A stretch of DNA of 64,000 nt, from the IMG/VR virus record IMGVR_UViG_2883843030_000002, positions 1 through 64,000 of that record; one strand, written 5' to 3'. Source of the stretch: a virus. Lineage: Duplodnaviria; Caudoviricetes. The notes beneath the pieces are model-generated. The model searched no databases, was not told where the DNA came from, and was given only the letters and a program-made list of their open reading frames with translations. The stretch's first letter is position 1; each line of letters starts with the position of its first letter. Positions 19,033 to 54,904 of this stretch are shown here, in pieces. A program made the translations under genes and the position numbers.

Positions 19033-19193
19033 TATTAAAGCCTTCAGGACTCCTGTGATGTTTCCGCTTTCCAGACTTTCGTCTGCTGTTGCCGAGGCTC
19101 GTATCCCTCGCAGAAATGCAATGACGGACACGCCGCCGAGCAGGGTCTTACGATTCTGTTGACGGTGAGGGAGCACCGTTTTATCCTTAATGT

Positions 19194-19303
19194 GAGCCGA
19201 GAGCTGTTGTTCGTGTTCGAGTTCGAAGAAGCGTTATTCGCGTTCGAGTAGACGAGACCGCCATTCGCGTTCGCATTGTTGTTCGACCGACCGACGCACC
19301 GGC
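19194..19303 (-). repeat. DGR template repeat (TR); IMH*-like end ACATTAA at 19187-19193 region
   Basis: 110 bp with 12 AAC/AAT codons in the target frame; matches VR1 and VR2 except at adenines. Confidence 0.96.
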
Positions 19304-19381
19304 TTTGGGATACTCTACCTTTTTTGAAAGTTTCTTTTCCTTGTTATCTCTTGGGGTTATGAGTTTGACAATATGCAATGG

Positions 19382-19417
19382 GCTTCGGCCTCGGGCTTTG
19401 TTGCCCGAAACCGAAGC
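19382..19417 (-). other. GC-rich hairpin downstream of the VR1 gene (DGR homing hairpin candidate)
   Basis: GCTTCGG-CC-TCGGGC-TTTGTT-GCCCGA-AA-CCGAAGC. Confidence 0.65.
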
Positions 19418-19428
19418 GACGCTTTTCG

Positions 19429-22400
19429 TTATGCCGCGCTCTCCGCAGATTCAACTATTTCGAAATTTCCGCTGAAGGCGAGCCGAGAGCTGACGCTCGT
19501 GCTCGAGCTCGAAGAAGCGTAATACGCGCTCGAGAAGACGAGACCGCCATTCGCGTTCGCACTGTAGTACGACCGACCGACGCACCGGCCCCTATCATTA
19601 GTATAATAGTATCCGTCAGAATAGTTCTTATTCCACTTGCTGTTGTCGGTAGTCACTCGCGAGGCGATTATGTCGCAGTATCTGCCAAATTTAACACGAC
19701 CGATGCAGTATCCAGAGGTGTTTAAGCCTTGGATAACGCTTTCCTCTTTCGTCTGATAGTTGCGGACAACATGGTACTTTGCATCAAGCGGGTATGATGA
19801 TGTCGCAATACGCTTGTCTTTCTTGTACTGAGCGAATGAGGGCACATTGGCGGCAATGAAGTCCATGACCTCCCAGTTGCAGCCGACAAAGTTCTGTATA
19901 CCGAATATAATGTTGCCGATGTTTGAACCGGAATATTTTCTTGTAACCTTTCCATAGCTGTTGAAATTATTCTGTCCGGTAACGTACTGTGAGCCACAAC
20001 CATATCCAGCGTAAGCCTGAATGTCGCGGGTTCCAGTCAACGCCATCACAAGGTTGGCGATGTCCTTGCTTATCTCATAGCTGATACCGTGGAAACCCTT
20101 GCCGCGCATTTCGATAAGATTTAGTATGTCGGCATAGGTATAGTTCATAGTAGAGGTGGGAACAGAAGTATTCGTGATGTTGCCCTCGTTGTCGTACTTC
20201 CAATCGGCATTTGTTACCGATGTGCCGGTACCTGTGCGAGTTTTTACGCCACTGATTGAACGAGGTCGCATAAGAGCGTCAACACTCATGCCGTAGATGC
20301 CGACGAAACGCATAGGCACCCATACCCAGTCTGGTTCGATGGCCTCGATAGCGGCACTGTCAACTGCAATAGCTTCAAGGTTATCAAAGCCAGTAGGCGA
20401 TGTGAACACAATCTTCTTGGCACCGCTTGGCACATCGCAGAACACATAATCACCGATTGAGAAATCGAATAGTGAATGACTTACGGCCATATTGAATGTA
20501 CCTACCACTTTGTCGTTTTCGTCTACGAACACCGCGCCAATTTGTGCGTTGTTGAGCCCGGGCCAGCGAACCTGCTTCATGCCTTCAACTTCGAGTTCAT
20601 AGACATTCATGTTGGCGTTATCGACTATCTCGTAGTCTTCGCCCTTTGAGAGTGCCGTCCCGTTATTGGATGTATAGACACAAGAGTACGCCTTCACAAG
20701 AATATCAGCCAGTTTCTTTCGATTGGTTTTCATTGCCGTGGAGAGTGGCAGAGAGGCGAAACTGCAAGCAAACAGATATTTTTTCTGATTCTTGAAGTCA
20801 TTAACGCCTTTATACCAATATAGGCCGAAACCGAGCATCACATCAAAGCCCTCGCCTGCTTGGTCTGTCGGATCATACTCGGTGCCGTTTGCCATCAGAT
20901 TGTAGTTGGTATCCATAATCTGACGTGCGAGCAGCTTGGACTCTCGGGAATCGTAGGTGCATCGGTACGGGTGGGCTGCATCGAATATCTTGACAAAGTG
21001 ACCGCTTGGCTCATAGTCTTCCTTACTTGTGCCGTTATCGAGATTCGTGATATTCTGACAGTCGTCGTCGGTATCATCGAAACGGACGCACGAATACTGC
21101 GAGTTAAAAAGGGTTAATTGCGGGAAGTATGCTGCAAGGCTGTTAGGCTTGGTTTTGTCAAGTTCGGTGTCATCAATGAGGTCTTCCATAATCCAACGAC
21201 CCGTTACGCCAGAACACTGATTGCTTTCCTCATAGGCACTCCCCGTGGGGTCGAGACCTATAGCACCGCTTGCGCGGAGAGATTTTAGGATAGATGAGGG
21301 AGCCGTAATATTCACGTCCGGCAAACGGAGGTAACGGAGGTTAGACGAACCTACGATGCCGCTGATGAGTGTGTACGGGTCAACATTCGGACAGCCGGCT
21401 AGCATGAGGCGGTTAACACTTGACATGCCTGCGATTGTCAAACCTCCGGGATATGTGAGATTCGGCAGGTTGATAAAGTTTAACTCCGTCATAGTTGCTG
21501 GCAACTCCAAAGTGCTTATCGGAGAGGTTTCGGCAGTGCTGATGTTTGTCAGTTCCGAACCTGATGCAAGCACACTTTCCAGTCGAGGACATTTTGCGGC
21601 GTTGATAGATGCCACTTCAGTAGTTCTTACATCGAGGTGAGTGAGGAACGGTAGGTCGCCGAGATTCATGTTGGTGAGGAATCCGGTGTTGCCTGGAGAT
21701 AGTCTCCAGGACTGACGGTGGTTGGTCGAGCCGATAACGATTTTCTCTGCCAGTTTCATCTGCGAGAACTGGAAGTTCGGGTCCAAGGAGATTTGCGAGA
21801 GGTCAATTTCGCTCATCTGGTCGGCCTGATAGATATAGAGAAGAATATTATCGCCGTGCTGGAAGTTGGTGAAAGTGCCCTGCTCGCCGGCCTTGAGGTA
21901 CATGCCCTGCGTTACGTTGCCACCATCGTTACCAATACCAAAGTAGCCGGACTTGGCGGCACGGAAACGAATTACAGCTCCTGTCTTGGCTCCGATACGA
22001 CCACCAAGTACGTGGCTTGCATCCTTGAAGTCACCGGTTTGGTAATAACCATCGCGGATGCGCCAACGTTGCTCAATAAATCGGGGGAGCGACTGACGGC
22101 CGGAACCATGGAGTGCGTAATAATAGATATCTGTGTATAGCTCAGAATACTTGATGTATTTGCGCTCACAGTCGAACGTACAAACTACCTTGGGCCAGAA
22201 AGCAATTCGCTTCTGCACGAAGTAATAGTTCGCGCCTTTAGGCGAGAATGGGCCAGCACCGATACCGTCGACCTCAGGAAGATTACGCATGAGGTCCACA
22301 ACACCGGGAAGAGTGAGGGTACCGCCCATAGCATTTGCAACCATTTCCTGATTGTCGCAGCGACGGAGATTGTTCCATAAGATAGAGCCACGGCCGGCGT

Positions 22401-25400
22401 AGCACTTGTCGTCTTCAGCAGGATCGAGCTCAGCAGGAATTGTGTTACCGCCATCGTTATCTTTACCGTTGCATGTATCACAGTCGTAAACCTTATTGAA
22501 GTACATGCGTATGGGCTCCATCGCCGATGGGGAATGGTATTCTCCATTCTCCACCCAGCAGCCATCTTCGAGGAAGAACATGGGCTGCATGTTTTTGGCT
22601 TGCTGGTCCACAGCGGCGAGATAGTCGGTGAATGTGTAGTAAGCCAGAAGCGACTGAATGCTCATATAACGCCATGCGTTATCCCTCCACAACTGTTTCC
22701 ATGTTGCAGAGAGTGCGGCCTTGGAATAGTCGCAAGAATCACAGAACTTGAGTACATTGAACAGCTCATATGGAACCTTGCGGCCCATTGCGAGGTCTTC
22801 CTGCAGTTGGTCGTCGTCAATCATGCACTCGAAATACTGCGTCCATGCCGGGTATGACTGCTGTCCGAGGCTGAGTTTTGACACCCATGATGACTGCGTT
22901 TCGACGGGTGCCATCATATCGTCGATTGATCCGACGCCCATAAACCAGTCCATAGCATCGTATGTGATAAGCTCATAGCCAGACACTGGATTGAGGACAT
23001 CTCCGATAATCTGCCACTTGCCGTTGACCTGCTTCATAGAGCCGGTACAGCGGGCCCATTCGCCACCGCTGTGGCGCATGAAGATGTAGTCACGTCCACA
23101 ATACTGCGAAAGCAGATATAGCTTGCTCGTATCAAGTCCTTCGGTGGTTTTGAAACGAGCCATAATCTCCGTGAGTGTTTCCTGGCTTTGGAACTTGCCG
23201 GCGGAATTGAAAGTTGCCTTGCCGAAGAATTCAACAAAGTCGCCATAGTTGCGACAGCCTTTGTTGTAGCCTGATGTGTCTTTGAAACCGAGTGCCACCT
23301 GCTCACCCTTGTCTTCTTTCCAGTTGCCACGGGCATGGAACCAGGCATCACTAAGTGAATCGTTGGTTGCACGGAAAGCGGCAATTGGGTGGTTGGCAGT
23401 CGAGTGATTCATTTGCAAGCCGGTTACAGATATACCGCTCTTACTCCACGTGCCGTCGAAGGCCCTCTGCGCTGGGGTGATATAATCGCTTCCGAGGGCA
23501 CGGAAAGTGGCATTCATCATATCACACACGCCGCAGTCGTTCGCCATGGATGAATCGGAGTAGTCGACCTTAACTGTGAGGATAGCTACTGGTATAGAGT
23601 TCTCGATCACACGCACATATCCGATGCTGAACAGTTCGTACGTCTTGAGTGCATCAGCATTGGTGTAGTCGGGATTGAGTGCGGTAATCTTCCAGTTCTT
23701 TTCTTTGCAGAGATAGAAGCGGTCGTTTTTGATAGGACGCTTGGCTGAGGTAGTACCCTGACGACGCCAACGCACGTTTTCTGCCTTGAAGGACCTCCAC
23801 GGCAAAGTTGGGTGGAAGTAATAAAGCGTACACAAGAAATTTGTCTTGGTGTCGATATCCGAGTCAAAGCTGTCGAATGTAGCTTGGGGGGCTACTACAA
23901 CGTAGTAAGGGAAACCTTTCTCCTTGAGCAGATCCATCGAGGGGCGGTTCTGATTATCGAGGACATTCTCTGCGTCAAACTCGGCAATCATAGCATTGGT
24001 GTCCGTGAGCTTGCAAAGATAGTTTTGGAATGCCTGAGCCCACTCGTAATAGCTATCGTATGCAAGTGTATAGTAGAGGTAAAAGTCTCCGTCTGTGCCG
24101 TCGAATGAAATCTGCTTTTGGTTGAGAATCGCGCCGGAATTGGAAACATAGCCAATAGCACCGATTTCTTCACCGTCGACATATAGTTTGATGGTGGAGT
24201 AATCAGTGGAGCCACGATTGACGGTTATTGTGGACGGTTCCACAACAATTCCTACTGTAACTTTTTCACTGCATCGGAATGAGCGTGTAATCTGCGAGGG
24301 CGTACCGTTCTTGCAGCACACCACAATCTTGTTACCGCAGATATAGAAGCCAGCACCAGAGTTAGGATCGTAGCACTCCATGAGCTTCGCGTCTTCATCC
24401 TTAACGTTATTTGTTGCAAAGGCAAACTGGAACGCCATACCATTTGTGCGTTCAGTGGCAGCCGAGCCAAACGGGGCGTAAGGGATACGGGCTTTGACAT
24501 TTTCGGCAATACGCAGGCAGTTCTCGTTGAGGTAGGTTGCAAAACCATTCGACGACCAGTTAGCCCCAATAACGTCCATAGTATAACCGTTATTGGTAAT
24601 TGTGTGATCGGCCTCAGAATTCGAACGGCTGGCAAAGTCGTATCCAAAGAGTGCTCCTTCCTTAATGATGGCAGAAATAGCAGATCCTACTACGCGCACC
24701 GATATAGGACTGGTTTGGCTGGCTCCGCTCTTCGCATAGAATTGTATTATTGTGGAGCCGTCGGTATCGTAGCCCTGAATCTGCTTGCGTATTGGATAAG
24801 TCTGGGAAATGTAGCAATCGTTGGAGATAATTTCCTCTCCGTTCATGTATACTTCTACTGTTGTGGGCTCCTTACCAGGCGTGTATGCTGCAATCTCCAG
24901 TTCGAGATTATCATACAGTCGGACAATGCCATTGTTAACATCGTTGTAACGGAGTGCCACAATGGGTACGTTAGACTTTGAGTCAACGCACATTATTGTA
25001 GAGTAAATTGTGTTTCCTTTAACGCCCGACGCAACATCCTCGCCGGATATGCGAATTGGATAGGAGCCGTGCTCAAGACGCTCTCCGCCTCCGAGCACAT
25101 TGCAAGGATCAATCGAGATTGAGTGCGAATAGCTATCTGTGATGGTCGCCTCGCCGAGTTTCTTCCATTCGCCGTCAAGATATATCTCGGTCATGACTTT
25201 CACACCTTGCTTCGATACGTTATTGGCGAACTTATACATCAGCAGGTTTTTAGACGAGCCGCCTACTTCTAGTACCGAGCTTGAGGTATAGTTGATAGTC
25301 TGCACGGAAGTACAAGTTACATCGACGGCTGTTACCGTAACGGTACGACGCTTCACGTTGCCCTCTGCATCGTAGGCAACGATAGTGAAGTCTCGCTGGG

Positions 25401-27618
25401 CCGCTTCTGCGAAGTATGGAGTGAAGTCGAACTTGAACGTGTAGTTTGTCGCTGAGGTCGATGAATTCTGATTGACATTCTCGCTCCATAAGGAAAGCCC
25501 GGTTGTTGCGTCGATGATTTCGAGACGACGGATGACGCCCAATACCTCTGTATCGCCATCGAATGTAACAGACTTAATGGCAGCATTTGCTATGATGTCA
25601 GAACCAAACGCTGCGTATATGGCAGGGTTCTCGAGGTATATAGAGAGCGTGGAGCCACTTGCGGAGCCCGAACCGGTGCTTTTGGGGAGCATGATGGGAT
25701 CGCCCATTTCGTTGCCTCGCTTGTCAACAGCCTTGATTATATGGTTGTCGGCATCTTGGTCGAGGTCAAGATGGTCGAAAGCTGATTGTTGCATTTCGTA
25801 GGCCCCCCCTGTTGAAAATGCGTCTTTGCCACCGTTTTCGGGCTGGTCTGAGGTTTTTACAGCACCGCCGCCGCCAAACTCTTTCCAGAGTTCTTTGTTG
25901 GCAAAGTCGGTTACTTCTCCGGTAAATTGGTAGGTTTCCCATTTGTATTCTTCGGCACGAAATGTCAATATAAGACCACTCTTGGCGTAAGTGATGCCGG
26001 AAGACTGCTGTGTCGAGAGTATTGCATCAATGGCACTGTCTTTCGTGTAGTAGCCGGTTACGGTTCGGGGGCAGAGATTATCTACATTGATAATAGCCTC
26101 TGCGCCGGCGGACATCCCTGCAAGGTCTATCCAATTCTTGGTACTCTTGAACTGGGCCTCGGTCACGTTGGGACCGACATATTGATATGTTTTCCAAGAG
26201 CCAGCACTAATGGCGAATGTAATCTGCAAACCGAGCAATGCTTTGTCGGCTGCAAAAACTGCATTGAGGACATTGTGAGTTTGTGTTTCAGCCATTATGT
26301 CCGAGTAATACTCTCCGTCTGGGAGGGGTATTTCTACCGTGGCGTTGAACGTATTGCCGACAGCTGCCCCACCTCCGCCAAATGGTTTCCATTGGGTGAC
26401 GTCATTCCAATCGGCATCTTCGTCGAACACATTCTTCTGCCACTGGTATGCTACCCATTTGTATTTCTCCTCGCCATTACTGCCGAGTTCAGCCATGAGA
26501 AAGGTAACTACTGCACCATAGGCTTGGTAAGCTTCATCAACTGAGCTTACTGCACTCTGGAGTGTGTAGAATGGTTCGTCTGTGTCATAGAGCGCATTCA
26601 GGTTGAGGAACAGCGTAGCCATGAGCTGGTGGCTATGGTTCGACAACTGATTTCTATTCTCGATTGACTGCTCGTAGGCCTCTTTACCCTTGTCTCCGGG
26701 GAAAGCAGTGTTTGCGGTCTCTCCGAGCGCGAGGTCATTTCCGATTATTACGAGTTCACTACTACTCCAACGAAAGGTCTTGTTGTCAGAGGTGCTGATA
26801 TAAACTTTGCCAGACTCTGGGGTAACACCATCTGCTGTAACTACCCCAAAATTTTCCTTATCGGCCCAGTCAGAATAATACTTGAACACCGCCATGTTGA
26901 GTTCGAGGTGTCCTTCTTTATCAGTCCAGTAATCACTGAGTCCGGGACGGAGTATGCCACCAGGAATCGTAGGCGTTGACATTTCGACATCATCTGCCTG
27001 CACCGACGGAATGTCTGCCACCGTAGTTCCTCGGAGGGGACGCAGAACGCCGCCCCAGTCTATAACAGAATCTTGAGCATAAATCGTACTTACTGCAAGT
27101 ATGAACTTGTTTGTTTCCTTGTTATACACAAGCATTGCACCGGGCGTGGTTGACTTTGCGCCTGTCGGAGAGTCTTGGATTGTGATACCTTCGACCATAG
27201 CGTGAAACTCAACAACATCGTCAACGAAACCAGGAAGGTATGCTGCCGGCACTTTTGCGTTGGCATCGAGAGGAGCAATGCCGCTTGGCATACCTTTGGA
27301 ATCGGTAACTTTCTTAGCTGCTTCGGCTGTACTTTTAGCTGTGTCGGCAGTAGACTGGGCCGCTGTTGCTTTTGTTTTTGCATCTTTGGCCTCATTGTAT
27401 GCAGTAGTAGCCGTGTTTGATGCTACTGTTACAGCCTGTTGAAGCGTGTTGTCTTTAGATGCTCGTTCACTCGTTTCTGTGGAAAGCGATTGGTCGACGT
27501 TCTCGATGATGTCAACAAGGACTTTTCCGACTCGCTCTGCCGTGTTTTTGCCCTCACCGTCCTCATATCTGATAAGGTCGGCTTGGTTTTTGAGATTGGT
27601 TTTATTATTCAGACCCAT
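19429..27618 (-). CDS. Giant tail / receptor-binding protein (2729 aa), DGR target with C-terminal CLec-like VR domain
   Basis: Follows the head genes; ends with GIQNFVGCNWE...VGRS...SRLAF, typical of DGR C-type-lectin folds; LRR-like segment. Confidence 0.88.
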   Translation of the reverse strand: MGLNNKTNLKNQADLIRYEDGEGKNTAERVGKVLVDIIENVDQSLSTETSERASKDNTLQQAVTVASNTATTAYNEAKDAKTKATAAQSTADTAKSTAEAAKKVTDSKGMPSGIAPLDANAKVPAAYLPGFVDDVVEFHAMVEGITIQDSPTGAKSTTPGAMLVYNKETNKFILAVSTIYAQDSVIDWGGVLRPLRGTTVADIPSVQADDVEMSTPTIPGGILRPGLSDYWTDKEGHLELNMAVFKYYSDWADKENFGVVTADGVTPESGKVYISTSDNKTFRWSSSELVIIGNDLALGETANTAFPGDKGKEAYEQSIENRNQLSNHSHQLMATLFLNLNALYDTDEPFYTLQSAVSSVDEAYQAYGAVVTFLMAELGSNGEEKYKWVAYQWQKNVFDEDADWNDVTQWKPFGGGGAAVGNTFNATVEIPLPDGEYYSDIMAETQTHNVLNAVFAADKALLGLQITFAISAGSWKTYQYVGPNVTEAQFKSTKNWIDLAGMSAGAEAIINVDNLCPRTVTGYYTKDSAIDAILSTQQSSGITYAKSGLILTFRAEEYKWETYQFTGEVTDFANKELWKEFGGGGAVKTSDQPENGGKDAFSTGGAYEMQQSAFDHLDLDQDADNHIIKAVDKRGNEMGDPIMLPKSTGSGSASGSTLSIYLENPAIYAAFGSDIIANAAIKSVTFDGDTEVLGVIRRLEIIDATTGLSLWSENVNQNSSTSATNYTFKFDFTPYFAEAAQRDFTIVAYDAEGNVKRRTVTVTAVDVTCTSVQTINYTSSSVLEVGGSSKNLLMYKFANNVSKQGVKVMTEIYLDGEWKKLGEATITDSYSHSISIDPCNVLGGGERLEHGSYPIRISGEDVASGVKGNTIYSTIMCVDSKSNVPIVALRYNDVNNGIVRLYDNLELEIAAYTPGKEPTTVEVYMNGEEIISNDCYISQTYPIRKQIQGYDTDGSTIIQFYAKSGASQTSPISVRVVGSAISAIIKEGALFGYDFASRSNSEADHTITNNGYTMDVIGANWSSNGFATYLNENCLRIAENVKARIPYAPFGSAATERTNGMAFQFAFATNNVKDEDAKLMECYDPNSGAGFYICGNKIVVCCKNGTPSQITRSFRCSEKVTVGIVVEPSTITVNRGSTDYSTIKLYVDGEEIGAIGYVSNSGAILNQKQISFDGTDGDFYLYYTLAYDSYYEWAQAFQNYLCKLTDTNAMIAEFDAENVLDNQNRPSMDLLKEKGFPYYVVVAPQATFDSFDSDIDTKTNFLCTLYYFHPTLPWRSFKAENVRWRRQGTTSAKRPIKNDRFYLCKEKNWKITALNPDYTNADALKTYELFSIGYVRVIENSIPVAILTVKVDYSDSSMANDCGVCDMMNATFRALGSDYITPAQRAFDGTWSKSGISVTGLQMNHSTANHPIAAFRATNDSLSDAWFHARGNWKEDKGEQVALGFKDTSGYNKGCRNYGDFVEFFGKATFNSAGKFQSQETLTEIMARFKTTEGLDTSKLYLLSQYCGRDYIFMRHSGGEWARCTGSMKQVNGKWQIIGDVLNPVSGYELITYDAMDWFMGVGSIDDMMAPVETQSSWVSKLSLGQQSYPAWTQYFECMIDDDQLQEDLAMGRKVPYELFNVLKFCDSCDYSKAALSATWKQLWRDNAWRYMSIQSLLAYYTFTDYLAAVDQQAKNMQPMFFLEDGCWVENGEYHSPSAMEPIRMYFNKVYDCDTCNGKDNDGGNTIPAELDPAEDDKCYAGRGSILWNNLRRCDNQEMVANAMGGTLTLPGVVDLMRNLPEVDGIGAGPFSPKGANYYFVQKRIAFWPKVVCTFDCERKYIKYSELYTDIYYYALHGSGRQSLPRFIEQRWRIRDGYYQTGDFKDASHVLGGRIGAKTGAVIRFRAAKSGYFGIGNDGGNVTQGMYLKAGEQGTFTNFQHGDNILLYIYQADQMSEIDLSQISLDPNFQFSQMKLAEKIVIGSTNHRQSWRLSPGNTGFLTNMNLGDLPFLTHLDVRTTEVASINAAKCPRLESVLASGSELTNISTAETSPISTLELPATMTELNFINLPNLTYPGGLTIAGMSSVNRLMLAGCPNVDPYTLISGIVGSSNLRYLRLPDVNITAPSSILKSLRASGAIGLDPTGSAYEESNQCSGVTGRWIMEDLIDDTELDKTKPNSLAAYFPQLTLFNSQYSCVRFDDTDDDCQNITNLDNGTSKEDYEPSGHFVKIFDAAHPYRCTYDSRESKLLARQIMDTNYNLMANGTEYDPTDQAGEGFDVMLGFGLYWYKGVNDFKNQKKYLFACSFASLPLSTAMKTNRKKLADILVKAYSCVYTSNNGTALSKGEDYEIVDNANMNVYELEVEGMKQVRWPGLNNAQIGAVFVDENDKVVGTFNMAVSHSLFDFSIGDYVFCDVPSGAKKIVFTSPTGFDNLEAIAVDSAAIEAIEPDWVWVPMRFVGIYGMSVDALMRPRSISGVKTRTGTGTSVTNADWKYDNEGNITNTSVPTSTMNYTYADILNLIEMRGKGFHGISYEISKDIANLVMALTGTRDIQAYAGYGCGSQYVTGQNNFNSYGKVTRKYSGSNIGNIIFGIQNFVGCNWEVMDFIAANVPSFAQYKKDKRIATSSYPLDAKYHVVRNYQTKEESVIQGLNTSGYCIGRVKFGRYCDIIASRVTTDNSKWNKNYSDGYYYTNDRGRCVGRSYYSANANGGLVFSSAYYASSSSSTSVSSRLAFSGNFEIVESAESAA
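19480..19589 (-). repeat. DGR variable repeat VR1
   Basis: 110 bp colinear with TR, 12 substitutions all at TR adenines. Confidence 0.96.
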
Positions 27619-31855: not shown

Positions 31856-33181
31856 TTACTTTTTACCACGTTTCTCGCGTTTTGCGGTGGTAGCCTCGCG
31901 GCGTTCACGGATAGCCTTCTGAGTCTTTGACTCAGTGGGTGTCGCTTGGCCTCCACCGGCGGGTGCTCCATGAGAAACGAAGCGGCGGTTGGTAGGGGTG
32001 AAAGATGAGCGCATGCCGATGGTTGCGTCAAGCCATGCCATGCCTCCGGCCTTGTTGACTTTAGCAACGATGGGACGGGCACTCTTGAGCTCTGTTTCCT
32101 GCTTTTCAATGGTCGCCTGCAGCTCTTCGACAGTCGCCTGCAGCTCTTCCACCTGTGGTGCATTCTCTTCGGGAGAGGCGTCCGGGTCGATTTCTTTGAG
32201 GCGTCCGGTGAGTTCAGCGATGATGGCGCGAATCTCGTCAGGGTCGTCCATAGAGTCGATGGGGTCGGGTTCGTCGTCATTCTGCTCGGGATCGATGATG
32301 TCGGTGATGATTTCACCTTCGACTACGACCTTTACGCCGTCGTCGAGAACATAGGTACCGTCAGGATAGGCAACGTCGCCAATCTGCGGATCGCCGTCTT
32401 CACGTTCTACCGTGAACTCATTGCCGTCGGCTGCAGTCACAACCTGGGCTTTCGCACGAGCGATGCCGGCTTTGGCAAGAAAGCGAGCGAAAGCAGAGGG
32501 CTTCTTTTCAGCAGGGCTACCTGCTTGGGGTTTGGGTTTAGCCATAGTTTTGTTATTGGTTTGAGATTTGATATTTCGTTTCCTAAGTCTGTGAGCGGTC
32601 GTGGGTACGAGAATGTGGCTGATAAAACCAAGTTCTTGGGCGCGGTCTGCGTCGATGAACGTGTTCTTATCCATGAGAGCTTGTAATGCTTTGCGATTGG
32701 CTCCAGTACGTTCCACATAGAGATCCAAAATGCGGTCTTGCTCTTCACGCAGTGCTTTTGACTGCACTTCGAGCTCAGTAATAAGAGCATCGAGCTTATC
32801 AGGTGTGTAGCGGAGAGGCAGGTCTGTCATCAGATACTCGTATGCTGGATTGTGCAAGCACATACGCATATTCTTGTTTGCGTACCGCCGTTCAGCAGGT
32901 GCTGCAAGAAGTATTACTGAGGCGATGGAGGAACATTCGCCCTCAACCGTTGCAGATACGGTCTTACCCGACCGGCGGAGAGCATCGTAGATAGCCCAAC
33001 CCTCACCACAGTCGCCGCCGCAGCAATGAATTCGCACGTCGATGACGTTGTCATCTTCCGGTATAGCGTCGATGAACTCCTGCACGTCTTTGTAGCAAAC
33101 CCCCTCGGGGCCGCCCATAGACACCGTGAAGGTCTTCTGTTCCTCGTCCACTATGTCGCTGTAGATTTTGAGTTTTGCCAT
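31856..33181 (-). CDS. ClpP-type head maturation protease fused to a scaffolding domain
   Basis: IHCCGGD..GWAIYDAL, EGECSSIASVI, LHNP, ELGFI; acidic coiled-coil C-half; start at MAKLKI. Confidence 0.88.
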   Translation of the reverse strand: MAKLKIYSDIVDEEQKTFTVSMGGPEGVCYKDVQEFIDAIPEDDNVIDVRIHCCGGDCGEGWAIYDALRRSGKTVSATVEGECSSIASVILLAAPAERRYANKNMRMCLHNPAYEYLMTDLPLRYTPDKLDALITELEVQSKALREEQDRILDLYVERTGANRKALQALMDKNTFIDADRAQELGFISHILVPTTAHRLRKRNIKSQTNNKTMAKPKPQAGSPAEKKPSAFARFLAKAGIARAKAQVVTAADGNEFTVEREDGDPQIGDVAYPDGTYVLDDGVKVVVEGEIITDIIDPEQNDDEPDPIDSMDDPDEIRAIIAELTGRLKEIDPDASPEENAPQVEELQATVEELQATIEKQETELKSARPIVAKVNKAGGMAWLDATIGMRSSFTPTNRRFVSHGAPAGGGQATPTESKTQKAIRERREATTAKREKRGKK

Positions 33182-41818: not shown

Positions 41819-43663
41819 TTATTCTTCGGATTTTTCCTGCTCCTTTTCTTCAGGAGCTTCTTCAGTAGCCGGCGCCTCTGCTTCGGGATTGCCTACGGCA
41901 TCGGTTGAGTCAGATGCTCCTTCGTCGGCCGAATCAGGCTGTTCGTCGGTCTGAGGTGCGTTTGCGTCTGGCTCATCAGGAGCAGGAGCCTGTGGCGTGA
42001 TTGACGCCTGAGCTTGAATTTCTTTCTCGTTCTCCTCGCGAAGCTCGTCAATCTTAGCCTGAATACCGGCCTTTGATTGATTGTAGCGGGCGTCGAGTTG
42101 CTTGGCGATTTCGTCCGCATTGTGGGCGTAGCGGTCTTCCATGATAGCCGAAAGCATGTTAGCCAGTTCGGGCGAGAAGTTCACACTCTTCTCAGAGAGA
42201 ATCGAACGTATGAACTCGCGAACAATGGAGTTGAAGTTCTTTTCGAGTGCCTTACCGATGGACCGATAATCTCCGCCCTGCGTTTCGTCGCAACCTATAG
42301 ACTCTTTGAATGCAACGGGGAGTCGCTTGAGGATGAGGGCACGGAACACGTCTGTTTCTACCGATGAAAGATCGGTGTTGAGGGTGGAATACTCGCAGGA
42401 CTCCATAAACGCTCTCTGACGCTCTACGAAATCCTCCTGGCGGTGGTCGTTGGCCTCGCGCAGTTTGACCTTGAGTTCAGAGATTCTACGATTGTTGTCT
42501 GCGAGCTTGTTGCCGGCAAACGGCTCTTCATCGCTATCAGGTGTGTAGTAGACATACTTTGTCTCGCCACTGAGATGACCGCTGTAGCAGATTTCGTATA
42601 TCGGGGTGACCGTGCCGTCCTTGATGTTATCATCGAACACAGCGCGGACCTTGTCGTAGTTGGCCTTTCGTGTGGCATAGGTCTCTTCGTCCTTATACTG
42701 GGCGCGGTCTGGAGCAACGGGCTCAGGAACATATTGGCGATTACCGAGACCAGACACATCAAGCCCGTACTCTTCGGCCGCCTGAAGAATAATCTCGTTC
42801 TCAGCGTACTCGCCGGCAAAGATGAGCTTGATTCCGTTCTTGGCTGCTTCCTTTGCCTCGCGGAAGATGGTCTCTCGCGCTTTAGCGAGGAAACATTCGC
42901 GCTTCATACAGCGTGGGGTGCTGACATCGCGGGCGTTGTCTGGATTGTTGGCGGTGTTGAGCGGACATTTCTCGCAGGCACACGCACCGGCCAGAGTGTC
43001 GTCGGAGAGGCTGAAACGCGCGGTCGGCAGTTGGTTCATAACATGTTCGTCAATCATTTCGTGCAGTTGAGGCATGTTGGGGAACTTGTAGGTCCATCGG
43101 GCTCTGCTTGCTTCGGTAAAGCAGGAGTCGAAAAGGGTCTGCTGTTGCTCGGCTGGGAGCTTGCAGATATCGAGAAGATGAGTCAGCACGAGAATACCCT
43201 CACGCATAAGTTGGACGAACGGCTCGATTGTGTGATGGAGCTGGATGCGACCAGACACGAAGCTGTTACTCTTACCGAGCATTTTTGCCATTTCTGCGAC
43301 GGTCATTGATCCGTCATTGTAGAGGCGATTGAGGGCGGCGGCTTCTTCCATCGGGTCGATATCCTTGCGTTGAAGATTCTCGATTATCATACAAGCGAAA
43401 GCCTGCTTGTCGTTGAGTTCCTTTACGACAGCCTGGATATCTTTCGCACCGATGAGTTGACTTGCGCGGAAGCGACGCTCTCCACACACGATTTCATACT
43501 TGGCATCTTTCTTGTTGCCGATTTTGCGGAGAGTGATAGGCTGGATAAGCCCATTCTCCTTGATACTTTGGGCGAGCTCTTCAAGCTCTTCCTGGTTGAA
43601 TGTCTTTCTGGGATTAAGTTCACTAGGTACAATCTCGGAAAGGGGGATGTTTCTTACTTGCAT
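41819..43663 (-). CDS. ParB/Spo0J-family protein with long C-terminal extension
   Basis: NPRKTF..LAQSIKENGLIQPI..IVCGERRFRA..ENLQRKDIDPMEEA, then HTH. Confidence 0.9.
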   Translation of the reverse strand: MQVRNIPLSEIVPSELNPRKTFNQEELEELAQSIKENGLIQPITLRKIGNKKDAKYEIVCGERRFRASQLIGAKDIQAVVKELNDKQAFACMIIENLQRKDIDPMEEAAALNRLYNDGSMTVAEMAKMLGKSNSFVSGRIQLHHTIEPFVQLMREGILVLTHLLDICKLPAEQQQTLFDSCFTEASRARWTYKFPNMPQLHEMIDEHVMNQLPTARFSLSDDTLAGACACEKCPLNTANNPDNARDVSTPRCMKRECFLAKARETIFREAKEAAKNGIKLIFAGEYAENEIILQAAEEYGLDVSGLGNRQYVPEPVAPDRAQYKDEETYATRKANYDKVRAVFDDNIKDGTVTPIYEICYSGHLSGETKYVYYTPDSDEEPFAGNKLADNNRRISELKVKLREANDHRQEDFVERQRAFMESCEYSTLNTDLSSVETDVFRALILKRLPVAFKESIGCDETQGGDYRSIGKALEKNFNSIVREFIRSILSEKSVNFSPELANMLSAIMEDRYAHNADEIAKQLDARYNQSKAGIQAKIDELREENEKEIQAQASITPQAPAPDEPDANAPQTDEQPDSADEGASDSTDAVGNPEAEAPATEEAPEEKEQEKSEE

Positions 43664-52505: not shown

Positions 52506-52919
52506 TCATAACTTCAGGAATCTCTCAAAGCGAGTACCTACTTCTGTCATAACCATCGGCCACCCGTATAGAGCCACTAGCAGTATCTTCATGCCGACTT
52601 GAGGGATATAACCATCTGCACCCCCAACTTCTGCGTAGATGTTGGGGTACATTTTGGCATACTCAAAAGCTGCCTTTAACAATTTGTCTTTGCTTAACTG
52701 TAAGACTCTCCCGTTCTCAATGTCGGTAAAGAATAAATCCCTGCCGTCAAATAGACCTTCGGCTGTTGCTTCGTAGTAAGGGTCGGCCTCTATGGGATTC
52801 CCTATAGCCAACATTTGGCCGAGGTCGAACTGATAACCATAGTCCAAAGCACTCGTAATGAGAGATTGTAACTCCTGACAGTCTATTACCGGCATGTCAG
52901 TCAACTGTTCCGTTGCCAT
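52506..52919 (-). CDS. Hypothetical protein
   Basis: ORF in operon. Confidence 0.7.
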   Translation of the reverse strand: MATEQLTDMPVIDCQELQSLITSALDYGYQFDLGQMLAIGNPIEADPYYEATAEGLFDGRDLFFTDIENGRVLQLSKDKLLKAAFEYAKMYPNIYAEVGGADGYIPQVGMKILLVALYGWPMVMTEVGTRFERFLKL

Positions 52920-53181
52920 AGTACATATCGAATCGTTTCATTTCAGAAAGAGAGCGATACCACTCGTCGTATTCTGCCTTGACAGCATTGTCAGCAAACT
53001 TGAAATAGCAGCCGTTGCAGTATCGGTACGTTCTATTTGCGTTGTAGAAGTTCTCGAACAGCTCCTCTTTTGTGGAGGCTTCCATCGTGATTTCCTCCTC
53101 TATGGCAAAATCCCAATATTTGAGGACTTTCGCCTTGTAAGCTCTGGATGTCCCTACGGGAGTTCCGGTTGTTTTCTCCAT
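52897..53181 (-). CDS. Hypothetical protein, first gene after promoter copy 7
   Basis: ATG ~28 nt downstream of the cassette. Confidence 0.75.
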   Translation of the reverse strand: MEKTTGTPVGTSRAYKAKVLKYWDFAIEEEITMEASTKEELFENFYNANRTYRYCNGCYFKFADNAVKAEYDEWYRSLSEMKRFDMYYGNGTVD

Positions 53182-53208
53182 TCAGCGGTTGGTTTTTTGA
53201 TTATTTTT

Positions 53209-53288
53209 ATCCTATTTGCATACGCAAAGATAATCAAAAATAATCATTTATGCAAGTTTTAGAGGGTTTATTTTAATCATATCTGCAA
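53209..53288 (-). promoter_or_regulatory. Early promoter/operator cassette, copy 7
   Basis: TATCTTTG box; repeats at 53241 and 53274. Confidence 0.85.
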
Positions 53289-53326
53289 TTTTTCAATGAC
53301 ATTTAGGCCGTTTCGGATATTATTTG

Positions 53327-53334
53327 TATCTTTG
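53327..53334 (+). promoter_or_regulatory. Divergent -7 box TATCTTTG driving the plus-strand moron
   Basis: TTTGTATCTTTGCAC, the canonical Bacteroidota context. Confidence 0.7.
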
Positions 53335-53339
53335 CACCT

Positions 53340-53548
53340 AAGTTGATAACTTGACAAGAGAGTCAGTAATACAACAGACATACAATAGCCTAATCGTCGT
53401 CGAACTACCACCTTGATAACTCCAGGCTATCGAAAGTTTACCCACTGGGCATTGTGGCTCTGTGTGCATATACGCGCAGGACACGACCTATTGGGTAAAC
53501 GGCTGTGGTAGGCCGGACGACGTTAGGCTGCTGTCCTGCGTCTTTTTG
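53340..53548 (+). ncRNA. Structured leader RNA / attenuator candidate
   Basis: Stems 53387-53411/53505-53529, 53436-53444/53492-53500 and 53475-53483/53532-53540, followed by TCTTTTTG. Confidence 0.6.
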
Positions 53549-53584
53549 TGGGTAGTTGCCAATAATGAGCAAATATGAAGTACA

Positions 53585-54070
53585 ATGGTAACTATCAAGC
53601 ATAACATCGACGAAATTCAATTCAAATATCTTTGGGCTAAGTATGTAAAGGGTTCCAATCTCGATCGACACTGCGCCCAATGCGTTCCGGGCAAGTTCAG
53701 CAAGAAGTTCTCCGGAGCCTGGAACAGCAATCTTCTTCAGCAGCCGGTTTTGAAAATGGATGAGGTCGCTGACGGAGAGTATCAGGCAATATATTTTTGC
53801 GGAGTATTTAAAAAAGGGTTCTCCACCAAGAAAAACTATCCTCATAACTTACACCTTGCGGTCATTCCTGAAGAGGGCCGAAGTGACGTCTTTGATTTCG
53901 AGAATTGGCATATTGAGATTGAAGGCGGATATATTTCACGCATCCCTGCTGAAGAGGAACTTGACGATAGATTCTTCAATGCTCCATACGACTATCACTA
54001 TTACACCTGTCGAATATTCAGGTGGATGGTGGGCTTCTTTTACCCCGAACTTCTAAAACCTACTATATGA
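53585..54070 (+). CDS. Moron gene 1, hypothetical protein (HCxxC)
   Basis: Plus-strand ORF with its own promoter; ATGA-coupled to the next gene. Confidence 0.75.
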   Translation: MVTIKHNIDEIQFKYLWAKYVKGSNLDRHCAQCVPGKFSKKFSGAWNSNLLQQPVLKMDEVADGEYQAIYFCGVFKKGFSTKKNYPHNLHLAVIPEEGRSDVFDFENWHIEIEGGYISRIPAEEELDDRFFNAPYDYHYYTCRIFRWMVGFFYPELLKPTI

Positions 54071-54627
54071 AACAAATTATCTTTACGCTCTTGTGTATGA
54101 TTATCACGACTTCGGCGTATGCGCAGAAGATATTGAGCGATGACACAACCAATGGCACACGTTCGATTATTACGAGCAAAGAAAATGTAAAGTCCGGCAA
54201 CGACCGCATTGTAGTTTATGCCGGCGTAAACCTCATGCAGTCCGGCGACACTCCGACGTACTTTCTGTCTCTCAAGCTGTCCGCGATGAAACATATGGTT
54301 ATCAGCAAAGACGGGCGTATAATGCTCAAAGATTCCGAGGGCAATGTTGTTACGCTCACTACATCCCAAGGCAGCTACGGGTCGGATATGAAGAACGTAG
54401 GCGGTTTCAACTTATACGAAATCAATGTTGACTATCCAATCTCCTACGAACAGTTGCAACAGCTCGCTAAGGGAGTTGCCAAGATTCGTATTGAACTTGA
54501 TAACGATGAGCCATTCAACAAAGAGTACAAGAAAGACAAGATTGGCAAGGTTCTCACGACCGATTTAAGCCTTATTGCCGGCGCGCTCGGCACTGACAAA
54601 AAGGCTTCTTTCTCGGAAGGGTTCTGA
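54067..54627 (+). CDS. Moron gene 2, secreted/periplasmic protein
   Basis: Signal peptide MKQIIFTLLCMIITTSAYA/Q, the typical Bacteroidota Q-rule cleavage. Confidence 0.8.
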   Translation: MKQIIFTLLCMIITTSAYAQKILSDDTTNGTRSIITSKENVKSGNDRIVVYAGVNLMQSGDTPTYFLSLKLSAMKHMVISKDGRIMLKDSEGNVVTLTTSQGSYGSDMKNVGGFNLYEINVDYPISYEQLQQLAKGVAKIRIELDNDEPFNKEYKKDKIGKVLTTDLSLIAGALGTDKKASFSEGF

Positions 54628-54635
54628 GAGTAATT

Positions 54636-54662
54636 GGGTCGACGGTTATATACCGCCGGCCC
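54636..54662. terminator. Hairpin between the convergent moron and tail operon
   Basis: GGGTCGACGG-TTATATA-CCGCCGGCCC. Confidence 0.55.
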
Positions 54663-54665
54663 TAA

Positions 54666-54899
54666 CTATATGCTGACGGTTGTGCGAAAATGGTCGACAA
54701 TATTATATATGGTCCGCTGGGACTTTGCATACTTGTCTGCAAGGACGCATACACAATAGACCGTCTTGTGGTTCTGTTTTTTCATGGCGCAAAACTCTTC
54801 ATAAATCTGGAGATTGTCGATGTCGTTCACACTAATCTGATTGTTTTTCAAGATTTGTAGAAGGCTTTCGTTGCTTTTGATTAGTTCGTAGCAGTTCAT
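54666..54899 (-). CDS. Small HTH protein (Mor/late-activator-like)
   Basis: LADKYAKSQRTIYNIV C-terminal HTH. Confidence 0.65.
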   Translation of the reverse strand: MNCYELIKSNESLLQILKNNQISVNDIDNLQIYEEFCAMKKQNHKTVYCVCVLADKYAKSQRTIYNIVDHFRTTVSI

Positions 54900-54904
54900 A
54901 TCTA

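Follow-up and report, generated by a model that had tools for sequence, protein, structure and literature searches.

A family of pseudoknotted leader RNAs on Bacteroidales mobile elements and its possible action as a portable attenuator

In the 64,000-nt stretch of viral DNA analysed here (Caudoviricetes; positions 1 to 64,000 of IMG/VR record IMGVR_UViG_2883843030_000002, hereafter the window), the RNA encoded in front of two plus-strand cargo genes belongs to an uncatalogued family of pseudoknotted leader RNAs. On the best reading of the data, promoter, leader and 5' UTR travel together as a cassette on mobile elements of Bacteroidales. The element has, in our judgement, an even chance of being a portable cis-acting attenuator of riboswitch-like type. 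The features of the window copy are listed in Table 1.

Structure and conservation of the leader RNA

The family was collected from Bacteroidales genomes, viral contigs and metagenomes; 71 distinct core sequences were obtained among the 111 loci kept, and they fell into three subfamilies. An earlier note, made from the window sequence alone, had described a highly structured leader with mutually exclusive folds, and its helices were all recovered: the long helix 53387-53411/53505-53529 with its internal loop, the helix 53436-53444/53492-53500 inside it, the crossing helix 53475-53483/53532-53540 with TCTTTTT directly after it at 53541-53547, and the competing helix 53385-53391/53424-53430. That the structured leader RNA is real was borne out by fold energy and, more strongly, by covariation across homologues. 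The 191-nt stretch folded at -78.3 kcal/mol, compared with -56.3 +/- 4.1 kcal/mol for 200 shuffles (z -5.3), none of which was as good. When 65 distinct sequences were aligned to the fitted model, 96.7% of the cells were paired, compared with 32-45% when the partners were slid, and compensatory changes on both sides were found at 22 of the 42 pairs, which was matched by none of 500 shuffles.

The individual helices of this alignment differed in how their conservation was expressed. Each pair of P1a was formed in 64 or 65 of the 65 sequences, with both-side change at two pairs, while P1b was 100% paired and showed no variation at six of its seven pairs. Both-side changes occurred somewhere in the family at all nine pairs of P2, and P2a was 94.1% paired. 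The pseudoknot helix was paired in 97.8% of cells (both-side change at 4/9 pairs), and the competing helix, here named ALT, in 83.1%, compared with 21-59% when slid (both-side change at 4/7 pairs). Scores of the family model ranged from 77 to 195 bits on the plus strand and reached at best 26.5 bits on the reverse strand, and G-U pairs were frequent on the plus strand. These results confirmed that the RNA structure is real and strand-specific.

Table 1. Features of the leader RNA and its cargo genes in the window
Feature	Positions	Strand	Remarks
Bacteroidetes-type -7 box TATCTTTG (TAnnTTTG)	53327..53334	+	aligned in relatives
~205-nt RNA	53341-53547	+	promoter, 5' hairpin, long closing helix, inner arm, long-range pseudoknot, T-tract
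P0, 5'-terminal hairpin of the transcript	53342..53375	+	fold -7.8 kcal/mol
Single-stranded linker GACAUAC	53377..53383	+	~90% conservation in alignments A1 and A3
S1 (AUAGCCU), 5' strand of helix ALT (a pseudoknot helix)	53385..53391	+	partner 53424-53430
P1a inner helix, 5' strand (CGUCGUC)	53395..53401	+	partner 53516-53522
P1b 5' strand (CUACCAC)	53405..53411	+	almost invariant; partner 53505-53511
S1' (AGGCUAU), 3' strand of ALT	53424..53430	+	pairs with S1 in the alignment
P2 and P2a 5' strands (GUUUACCCA, then UGGG)	53436..53449	+	covariation
P2b/P2c, apical hairpin of the P2 arm	53454..53484	+	proposed antiterminator; contains the pseudoknot 5' strand
Pseudoknot/terminator stem, 5' strand (CGCAGGACA)	53475..53483	+	partner 53532-53540
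P2a and P2 3' strands (CCUA, then UGGGUAAAC)	53487..53500	+	covariation alignment
14-mer GGCUGUGGUAGGCC	53501..53514	+	almost invariant; GGCU junction, P1b 3' strand, GCC of the internal loop
P1a inner 3' strand (GACGACG) and outer extension (UUAGGCU)	53516..53529	+	helix 1, 98.5% paired
Pseudoknot/terminator stem, 3' strand (UGUCCUGCG), and T-tract (UCUUUUU)	53532..53547	+	probable 3' end of a short transcript
Post-terminator motif GGGUAGUUGCC	53550..53560	+	conserved; TAnnGTTGCC then TTTTAC in relatives
uORF, 8 codons	53565-53591	+	overlaps main start; sequence reading
uORF, 9 codons	53575-53604	+	overlaps main start; sequence reading
161-aa cargo ORF	53585-54070	+	main start ATG 53585
186-aa predicted lipoprotein	54067-54627	+	second cargo gene

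Between subfamilies, the helices were rewritten on both strands. P1a is CAUCGUCC/GGACGAUG in subfamily 2, GUCAU(U)CUGA/UCAGAUGAC in subfamily 3, and CGCCUUC/GAAGGCG in locus L187, which was found by the model and not by the search pattern; S1 and S1' were both altered, to GCUC/GAGC, in subfamily 2 and L187. The P1b 5' strand was kept in nine of the 11 aligned sequences of subfamily 3 and is UUACCAC, with the opposite strand unchanged, in the other two; L187 carries UUACCAC/GUGGUAA. The 14-mer GGCUGUGGUAGGCC was retained in subfamilies 2 and 3, and in L187 it contains one inserted U and one G-to-A change. In alignment A1, 13 of its 14 positions were invariant and the remaining one nearly so, but the 14-mer was itself the search pattern, which makes this invariance partly a matter of construction and the sampling of family diversity biased. 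Conserved nucleotides clustered at the junction and internal loop, not in a single-stranded seed. The 5' hairpin P0 was conserved in another manner, reaching -8 kcal/mol or lower in 46 of the 54 distinct leaders and a z of -2 or lower in 45 of them, with stem sequences that differ widely among these leaders.

Several further pairings and elements were considered. In the main subfamily, S1 has 53523-53529 as a possible alternative partner; a switch between the outer part of P1 and ALT was dropped as a universal feature, given that the outer extension UUAGGCU is not retained in subfamily 2 or L187, and the outer helix of subfamily 3 differs. A K-turn at the internal loop and a pairing of the post-terminator segment with the P1b 5' strand, both noticed by eye, held in window-type sequences only. 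A leader-peptide attenuator was also discarded: some members have an ATG-started ORF at the P2 loop, where the window has CTG.

Database searches gave no name for the element. An Rfam 15 search of 52800-54900 at E <= 10, a check for which the earlier note had called, returned only snoR11, at chance level (E 5.8) and outside the element (53222-53311), and the whole window at gathering scores yielded only RT-3 at 19003-19155. In four representatives of the three subfamilies (L080, L027, L090 and L148; 24,645 bases), no Rfam family matched the element at E <= 1. The region had no BLAST match among 50,697 phage or 72,556 plasmid records, and no tRNA or tmRNA was detected in the window. The 14-mer GGCUGUGGUAGGCC, in DNA or RNA spelling, had no occurrence in the literature full text searched. 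The motif is not described in the accessible part of PMC8040213, whose thousands of unnamed candidates may include it, nor in the accessible part of bioRxiv 10.64898/2026.09.22.753630. Tandem repeats were not found within 53340-53550. The only tandem repeat detected was a 10-nt unit in 2.2 copies at 53225-53246.

Promoter, terminator-like helix and competing hairpin

TAnnTTTG is the -7 consensus of Bacteroidetes promoters. Of the 64 distinct members, 54 have an exact match to it upstream of the RNA, and three have one between the T-tract and the start codon, the other 61 being without. The "canonical promoter" of the earlier note, taken as sigma-70 type, was not supported, with two such sites in 53150-54750 compared with 3.2 expected from shuffles; the conserved promoter is the -7 box TATCTTTG, and transcription would start at about 53340-53345. 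Contigs from two RNA libraries covered relatives' variants of the element, although contigs cannot show ends, strand or level and could be DNA carry-over. One 230-nt RNA-library contig began at the start of S1, crossed the T-tract and extended into the ORF. The cover by RNA contigs reached no further than 53607, which proves nothing about the sequence beyond. Among the 24 sequencing runs listed, a small share of the stretch was found in two RNA runs only (0.06 and 0.05). Taken together, the RNA-library contigs weakly support transcription of the leader.

As in riboswitches, a conserved and covarying structured domain is located in the 5' leader. The T-tract is followed by the ATG at a median distance of 67 nt, and ahead of unrelated genes conservation of the 5' UTR extends as far as the start codon. 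The sequence after the T-tract is unrelated in L107, L139, L171, L052, L110 and L072, and the RNA is better conserved than what follows it. One-mismatch -7 boxes occur in 46/64 members, and the TAnnGTTGCC motif after the T-tract is itself such a box; it could be a weak second promoter, in which case the cargo would be independent of the leader. The 8-codon uORF at 53565-53591 of the earlier note does overlap the ATG at 53585, but its own ATG is not kept in relatives, whereas the ATG at 53575 is kept in relatives with the same cargo type.

The pseudoknot helix has the G+C-rich stem followed by a U-tract that marks an intrinsic terminator. Its duplex amounts to -15.4 kcal/mol in the window with a 9-bp stem, and at least five T were counted in the nine nucleotides after its 3' strand in 64/65 members; a T run of at least four was present in only 51/65, the T-tract being short in many. 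The hairpin loop of 3-8 nt that belongs to such terminators is lacking, as the two strands are ~48 nt apart and cross other helices, and a consensus scan detected no conventional hairpin terminator in 53150-54750. The 5' strand of the helix also lies within the apical hairpin, whose local fold (53450-53485) reached -13.1 kcal/mol and pairs eight of the nine pseudoknot-strand nucleotides in the window. In 59 of the 65 members at least six of these nine nucleotides were locally paired, with hairpin stems that differ between lineages. In the other six members, and apparently in L187, the hairpin covers few of them, so the competition is not universal. The pairings of terminator and antiterminator are thus mutually exclusive in silico, as in a riboswitch.

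These observations can be arranged into a candidate mechanism. RNA polymerase would start a few bases past the -7 box at 53327-53334, and the nascent RNA would fold P0, the P2 arm with its apical hairpin, P1a and P1b around the almost invariant junction, and S1/S1'. The last helix that could form would join 53475-53483, inside the apical hairpin, to 53532-53540, directly before the U-tract. If it forms, it would act as an intrinsic terminator and a ~205-nt RNA would be released; if the apical hairpin keeps its strand, polymerase would continue into the two cargo ORFs (53585-54070 and 54067-54627). A general cellular signal, such as a small molecule, an ion or a host factor, might bias the choice, and the proposed site for this is the almost invariant core, GAACUACCAC together with GGCUGUGGUAGGCC.

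Cargo genes and genomic settings

The two cargo ORFs of the window are among the few plus-strand genes of a minus-strand phage genome. The 161-aa protein encoded at 53585 had no Pfam, PHROG or PADLOC family and no usable match in the ESM Atlas. Its AlphaFold model, built on a 10-row alignment, reached pLDDT 78.2 and pTM 0.75, and no PDB entry matched the predicted fold at E <= 0.001 (best E 0.03, TM 0.28). Across the family the cargo is unrelated, including signal-peptide proteins, a TM2+SHOCT protein, Big_2 and BspA-LRR surface proteins, C5 DNA methyltransferases and a MutH-like nuclease; one cargo protein weakly matched a type IX secretion sorting domain, below the threshold. Genes controlled by a riboswitch share a function, which is not the case here, and in its functionally heterogeneous cargo the leader RNA differs from nearly all validated riboswitches. 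Gene association therefore points to no ligand, and the idea of SAM or SAH as ligand, raised by the probing proposed in the earlier note, found no backing in the genes associated with the main family.

Most members are located in small chromosomal islets with an IS1595-family transposase gene, outside phage immunity regions. No neighbour gene cluster common to the phage setting, the transposase islets and subfamily 3 was seen, so any factor acting on the RNA should be a general one.

Weighing the explanations

The earlier note had offered three readings, a riboswitch or attenuator, an RNA antitoxin for the downstream ORF, and a processed immunity RNA like those of phages P4 and P1. The first fits the data, with the RNA in the 5' leader, exact -7 boxes upstream in 54/64 members and downstream in 3/64, and the pseudoknot strand sequestered in 59/65; the other two were left unsupported. 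Its principal competitor, which we consider unlikely yet worth serious weight, is a stable free-standing sRNA, a ~205-nt transcript that would bind a host or phage protein or act in trans, with the terminator helix as part of a compact fold and the downstream genes as passengers that leakage or a weak promoter would express. Its own promoter, 5'-terminal hairpin and T-tract are what a stable sRNA gene would have, conservation is higher in the RNA than in the downstream sequence, which is unrelated after the T-tract in several members, and a one-mismatch -7 box lies past the terminator. Two copies were moreover found in some genomes, namely the cultivable strain Segatella maculosa DSM 19339 (L062/L070) and G426. 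However, the conserved bases lie in helices and junctions and no conserved single-stranded seed was seen, the 5' UTR is kept to the start codon across unrelated cargo with exact promoters there in so few members, no partner gene common to the three settings was seen, and a plain sRNA terminator has no need of the competing hairpin. Still less probable is a constitutive leader that senses no signal, namely an mRNA stabiliser, an insulator, or a modifier of RNA polymerase by processive antitermination like put/EAR, serving the expression of acquired cargo in any host. Portability across phages, transposon islets and restriction-modification genes, the 5' hairpin and a complex pseudoknotted leader fold like that of EAR would suit it; but the conserved terminator-like helix, T-tract and competitor hairpin suggest a decision point, no Rfam family matched, EAR included, and the cassette is head-on to neighbouring operons, so that antitermination without a check would send antisense transcription into them.

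A self-cleaving or processing RNA appears very improbable. In topology the crossing helices are similar to those of HDV-like ribozymes, in which case cleavage would fall at the 5' edge of S1, and the order of strands, as judged by reading, is comparable (S1, long-range 5' strands, S1', a variable arm, a C-containing conserved junction, long-range 3' strands); such ribozymes are common in mobile elements, and one metatranscriptome contig begins within 2 nt of S1. That contig end coincides with the border between conserved and variable sequence, where assembly might break anyway. No Rfam ribozyme model matched at E <= 10 in the window or at E <= 1 in the representatives, no equivalent of P3/L3 or P1.1 was seen in the alignments, and conservation extends to the linker GACAUAY ahead of the putative cleavage site, although an HDV-like ribozyme has no need of this. 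Very little credence is left for a type III RNA antitoxin acting on the protein encoded downstream, or for a processed immunity RNA like P1 C4 or P4 CI. In its layout, with a promoter, a structured RNA and a leaky terminator ahead of a protein gene, the locus resembles toxIN-type operons, and the window copy resides in a phage. Against these, the RNA contains none of the tandem repeats of type III systems, the fixed endoribonuclease toxin of such systems is replaced by unrelated cargo families, many with signal peptides, homologues of ORF 53585 exist at L014 and L016 without the RNA, and that ORF belongs to no PADLOC, Pfam or PHROG family; for the immunity RNA, no Rfam C4 match was obtained at E <= 10 and most members are outside phages and their immunity regions. 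Almost no credence is given to a signal at the DNA level, that is, an invertible segment, an attC-like recombination site or a MITE with 25-bp inverted repeats. Long imperfect inverted repeats with conserved sequence and variable downstream genes would fit it. But the element is single-copy in its own genome (seven other matches of 14-19 nt, E >= 0.5), for which the repeat or MITE idea was dropped; scores are strand-asymmetric (77-195 versus <= 26.5 bits), G-U pairs stand on one strand only, compensatory changes occur in the nested and crossing inner helices, promoter and T-tract are at fixed distances, and an inner segment in opposite orientation was noticed in none of the 111 loci.

Among known systems, the attenuator reading comes closest to riboswitches and attenuators with the terminator inside the fold, such as the thiS/HMP-PP riboswitch, which likewise have a conserved junction in a 5' leader and a terminator helix within the conserved motif with which local pairing competes. 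Unlike them, the present RNA has as terminator a long-range pseudoknot spanning ~48 nt that are themselves paired elsewhere, cargo without a shared function, carriage on mobile elements, and no Rfam similarity by sequence or model. The lambdoid late leader (PR' to 6S RNA to tR', with read-through by Q) also is a structured RNA of ~200 nt that ends at a terminator, beyond which the genes need read-through; the present fold is far more elaborate and is conserved outside phages too, no antiterminator gene is common to its settings, and its cargo is one or two accessory genes rather than a late operon. HK022 put and Bacillus EAR are cis-acting structured leaders as well, EAR being pseudoknotted and of similar size, whereas the present leader carries its own terminator-like helix and competitor, lacks an Rfam match and comes from a different phylum. 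P1 C4 and P4 CI share the small structured RNA in a phage leader, whereas the present RNA has no Rfam C4 match, is not located in an immunity region and belongs to a family found mostly outside phages. HDV-like ribozymes share crossing helices, a variable distal arm and a conserved junction, while the present RNA matched none of their models, has no identifiable P1.1, P3 or L3, and possesses an extra pseudoknot and a T-tract. Type III ToxI RNAs and the phage AbiF-associated RNA, as far as the accessible part of PMC12373285 describes them, likewise combine promoter, structured RNA, terminator and protein gene, whereas the present RNA has neither repeats nor a fixed protein partner, and the protein behind it is of no known defence family.

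A more ambitious form of the attenuator reading, speculative and in our estimate unlikely, is that of an orphan riboswitch class with a new architecture, in which the last helix of a doubly pseudoknotted aptamer would be the intrinsic terminator. It would sense a general signal of cell state (a second messenger, an ion or an abundant metabolite) rather than a pathway product, and across Bacteroidales it would have been mobilised by phages, IS1595-linked islets and restriction-modification modules, to which it would serve as a plug-in gate for expression.

Few bacteria of the gut are as abundant as the Bacteroidales. To our knowledge they are without many RNA regulators that have been worked out in Proteobacteria and Firmicutes, and few structured RNAs with a known role have come from them. 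The family described here is large, well supported and absent from Rfam, with crossing helices, an almost invariant core and carriage by both phages and transposon islets, and the accessory genes that it precedes affect the cell surface and the modification of DNA. As S. maculosa DSM 19339 can be cultivated and carries two copies, the question is accessible to direct experiment. A stable protein-binding RNA or a ribozyme would still represent a new class. If the element is a sensor-controlled attenuator, it would show how mobile elements bring their own gene switch, and Bacteroides genetics would gain a compact and portable part for gene control. If the orphan riboswitch reading is true, mobile elements of these bacteria would carry a portable sensor that times the expression of their surface and defence cargo.

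Fold and conserved structure of the leader RNA

All of the helices listed in the earlier note were present at their coordinates in the interval between genes 53181 (-) and 53585 (+), and the element occurred once in its own genome. The stretch 53370-53560 (191 nt) on the + strand folded to -78.3 kcal/mol, compared with -56.3 +/- 4.1 kcal/mol for shuffled sequences (z -5.3; 0 of 200 as good), and a weaker fold was obtained for the opposite strand (-69.9 kcal/mol, z -4.3). No tRNA or tmRNA was detected by ARAGORN. The Rfam search proposed in that note gave no match on the element at E <= 10; the sole Rfam RNA over the whole window was RT-3.

A MAFFT alignment of 65 distinct sequences (A1) was used to build model R1, to which the same sequences were re-aligned (A3). 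The structure tested on A3 comprised the outer and inner closing helices, the invariant helix, the P2 arm and the crossing helix (53475-53483 / 53532-53540). In A3, which favours nested helices because it was fitted to the model, 96.7% of cells were paired versus 32-45% with partners slid, and compensatory change on both sides was found in 22 of 42 pairs, while plain A1 gave 94.8% and 16 pairs, respectively. None of 500 shuffles reached any of the five measures on A3. Compensatory change was found at all nine P2 pairs. The crossing helix was left out of the model, so its pairing was not favoured by the fit, and it was 97.8% paired in A3 with four compensatory pairs. The S1/S1' helix (53385-53391 / 53424-53430) was 83.1% paired, also with four. 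In subfamily 2 and the divergent member L187, both strands of this helix were rewritten, and the closing helix did not keep its outer extension; the conserved architecture, as read from the alignments, is therefore doubly pseudoknotted.

Almost no variation was seen in helix CUACCAC/GUGGUAG or in the flanking GAA, GGCU and GCC, a constancy partly forced by the pattern search; in L187, picked up by the model alone, helix and flanks were kept with one compensated change. Scores on the + strand were 133-195 bits for the main family and 77-90 bits for subfamily 2, the best reverse-strand score was 26.5 bits, and G-U pairs were common on the + strand, which together indicated that the RNA is read from that strand. 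The near-invariant 14-mer at 53501-53514 can also form a local hairpin of its own (GGCU / GGCC around GUGGUA). In L187 this local hairpin was a perfect 5-bp stem (GGCUU-GUGGU-AAGCC), with the long-range partner changing in step. A double constraint from local and long-range pairing might be the reason for its invariance.

Promoter, RNA ends and the proposed switch

Alignment of the upstream flanks revealed a conserved -7 box of Bacteroidetes type (consensus TAnnTTTG), with a T-rich stretch including TTG ahead of it. The canonical promoter proposed earlier, probably from sigma-70-like matches, was not supported as a sigma-70 type, with two matches found against 3.2 expected from shuffles (no excess). 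Directly after the -7 box lay a hairpin whose sequence varied by lineage; its energy was -8 kcal/mol or lower in 46 of 54 distinct leaders and its z-score -2 or lower in 45 of 54, the window hairpin being weaker (-7.8 kcal/mol). At least five T occurred within nine bases 3' of the crossing helix in 64 of 65 members. From these two boundaries, the RNA should extend from about 53341 to 53547. Among RNA libraries, relatives of the element were found in contigs of only two; one contig of 230 nt spans 53385-53582 and continues into the ORF, the other is 872 nt, and both attest presence only, saying nothing on ends or levels.

The tip of the P2 arm was folded alone, member by member (n = 65). In 59 of 65 members, a local hairpin took up six or more of the nine nucleotides that form the 5' strand of the crossing helix, and its stems varied between lineages. 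In the window, the local hairpin reached -13.1 kcal/mol versus -15.4 kcal/mol for the crossing duplex. One strand is thus contested by two conserved pairings, one of which leads into a U-tract, an arrangement that follows the logic of transcription attenuators. Its predicted terminator stem is unusual in being a long-range pseudoknot, whose strands meet only once the rest of the RNA has folded. Formation of the native fold would terminate transcription, trapping of the strand in the local hairpin would allow read-through, and a signal or factor may act at the invariant junction.

The segment from T-tract to start codon was conserved before unrelated genes, as far as the first codons. An exact -7 box was found there in 3 of 64 distinct cases and upstream of the RNA in 54 of 64, the members lacking the latter being mostly longer subfamily 3 loci and loci cut short. 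Judged from this conservation and the rarity of exact boxes, the cargo appears dependent on the promoter of the RNA; a one-mismatch box TAnnGTTG conserved after the T-tract may be a weak second promoter. Most islet-type members (loci L080, L084, L070 and relatives) had a conserved start-stop pair (ATG then TAG/TAA) one base before the main ATG, and their upstream TTTTACA can pair with the TGTARAA containing it. Window-type members had a conserved upstream ATG (53575) opening a 9-codon uORF (53575-53604) that overlaps the main start.

Cargo, setting and comparison with known RNA classes

The window, a large phage genome, has 88 ORFs of at least 70 aa, nearly all on the - strand, encoding among others a tape-measure-sized protein; few units lie on the + strand, and one of these consists of the RNA with its two downstream ORFs. 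The layout at 17554-27618 (-) recalls UG27 systems, which are reported to combine a reverse transcriptase, a giant ORF and an ncRNA in Bacteroidota prophages (bioRxiv 10.64898/2026.09.22.753630).

Features of the window and of related loci
Feature	Position	Strand	Remarks
Intergenic interval	between start of - strand gene at 53181 and + strand ORF at 53585		holds element
-7 box TATCTTTG	53327-53334	+	alignment of upstream flanks
Second cargo gene, predicted lipoprotein (signal peptide ending AYAQ)	54067-54627	+	weak partial match to PADLOC PDC-M59C, E 1.6e-5
77-aa protein, convergent with cargo unit	54666-54899	-	phrog_17790, E 7e-15
RT-3 RNA (Rfam)	19003-19155	-	67 bits; between 2729-aa ORF and RT-domain ORF
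2729-aa ORF	19429-27618	-	flanks RT-3 RNA
492-aa ORF with reverse-transcriptase domain	17554-19032	-	RVT_1 E 1.3e-6, just under Pfam's cutoff
S-adenosylmethionine synthetase, full-length	10959-12221	-	all three MetK domains, E 3e-40 to 9e-60
ParB-like protein	41819-43663		
ClpP-like protein	31856-33181		
Second motif copy	L090 1637-1801; similar positions in L104	-	26 bits, E 8e-5, core variant GGGCTGTGCAAGGCC
Two MITE-like hairpin repeats	L027 5609-5719 and 6164-6274		0.4-1 kb upstream of subfamily 2 RNA; chance-level matches to plant MIR1120-type models

The majority of relatives lay in small chromosomal islets rather than in a phage setting. In the islets, the RNA with one + strand gene is oriented head-on to two small - strand genes plus a gene for an IS1595-family transposase (Pfam E 2e-43) or a KilA-N protein. 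Cargo differed by locus and included signal-peptide proteins of several unrelated kinds, a membrane protein (TM2+SHOCT), a surface protein of Big_2 or BspA type, and a protein whose match to a type IX secretion sorting domain was weak and below threshold. Subfamily 3, a version of about 330 nt with extra 5' domains, preceded a C5 DNA methyltransferase or a MutH-like nuclease; at some of its loci the motif occurred in tandem, the second and weaker copy being placed after the first RNA and before the methyltransferase gene. PDC-M59C, matched by the second cargo gene of the window, is a candidate defence protein family, and the convergent 77-aa product showed a weak, below-cutoff likeness to late transcription activators of the Mor type (Pfam Mor E 0.016).

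In two phage contigs, the homologue of ORF 53585 had a plain promoter in front and lacked the RNA. Together with the variable cargo, this argues from gene context that the RNA is not a partner of ORF 53585, and the RNA antitoxin suggested earlier lost its footing: a type III antitoxin was not supported, as there were no repeats within the RNA and no constant toxin partner. An immunity RNA of C4/CI type likewise found no support in the Rfam search, and no ribozyme was recognisable in Rfam searches of the window site and its relatives. The suggestion of a riboswitch or attenuator survived in part, since competing pairings with a predicted terminator lie inside the conserved fold, while the gene association expected of riboswitches failed with the varied cargo. 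In its predicted working, the element is closest to riboswitch-type attenuators with a terminator embedded in the conserved fold. For the attenuator, no gene common to the phage setting, the islets and subfamily 3 was seen, so any factor should be a general one. No description of the motif was found in the literature searched, and published supplementary lists of candidate RNAs may still include it.

Distribution of the element

Of 400 other genomes from the same family, 4 contained related DNA by BLAST, and the element was present in two of four viral contigs encoding a homologue of ORF 53585. Three collections were scanned with the most conserved stretch as a pattern, giving 3 viral, 59 genome-contig and 105 metagenome matches. 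Loci with moderate G+C and the 5' partner motif upstream were retained (28 of 59 genome and 72 of 105 metagenome matches); those discarded were from G+C-rich genomes of other phyla and lacked the motif. With the remainder from earlier similarity searches, 111 loci with 71 distinct core sequences were obtained. The named carrier genomes were Bacteroidales (Prevotella, Segatella maculosa with two loci, Palleniella, Alloprevotella, Muribaculaceae, Bacteroides and Avibacteroides) alongside MAGs, and one 4-kb carrier contig was filed under another genus. Across the order, the covariance model found the element in 2 of 150 other sampled genomes, and the phage and plasmid record collections gave no match. 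This sparse and patchy spread is as expected for a passenger of mobile DNA.
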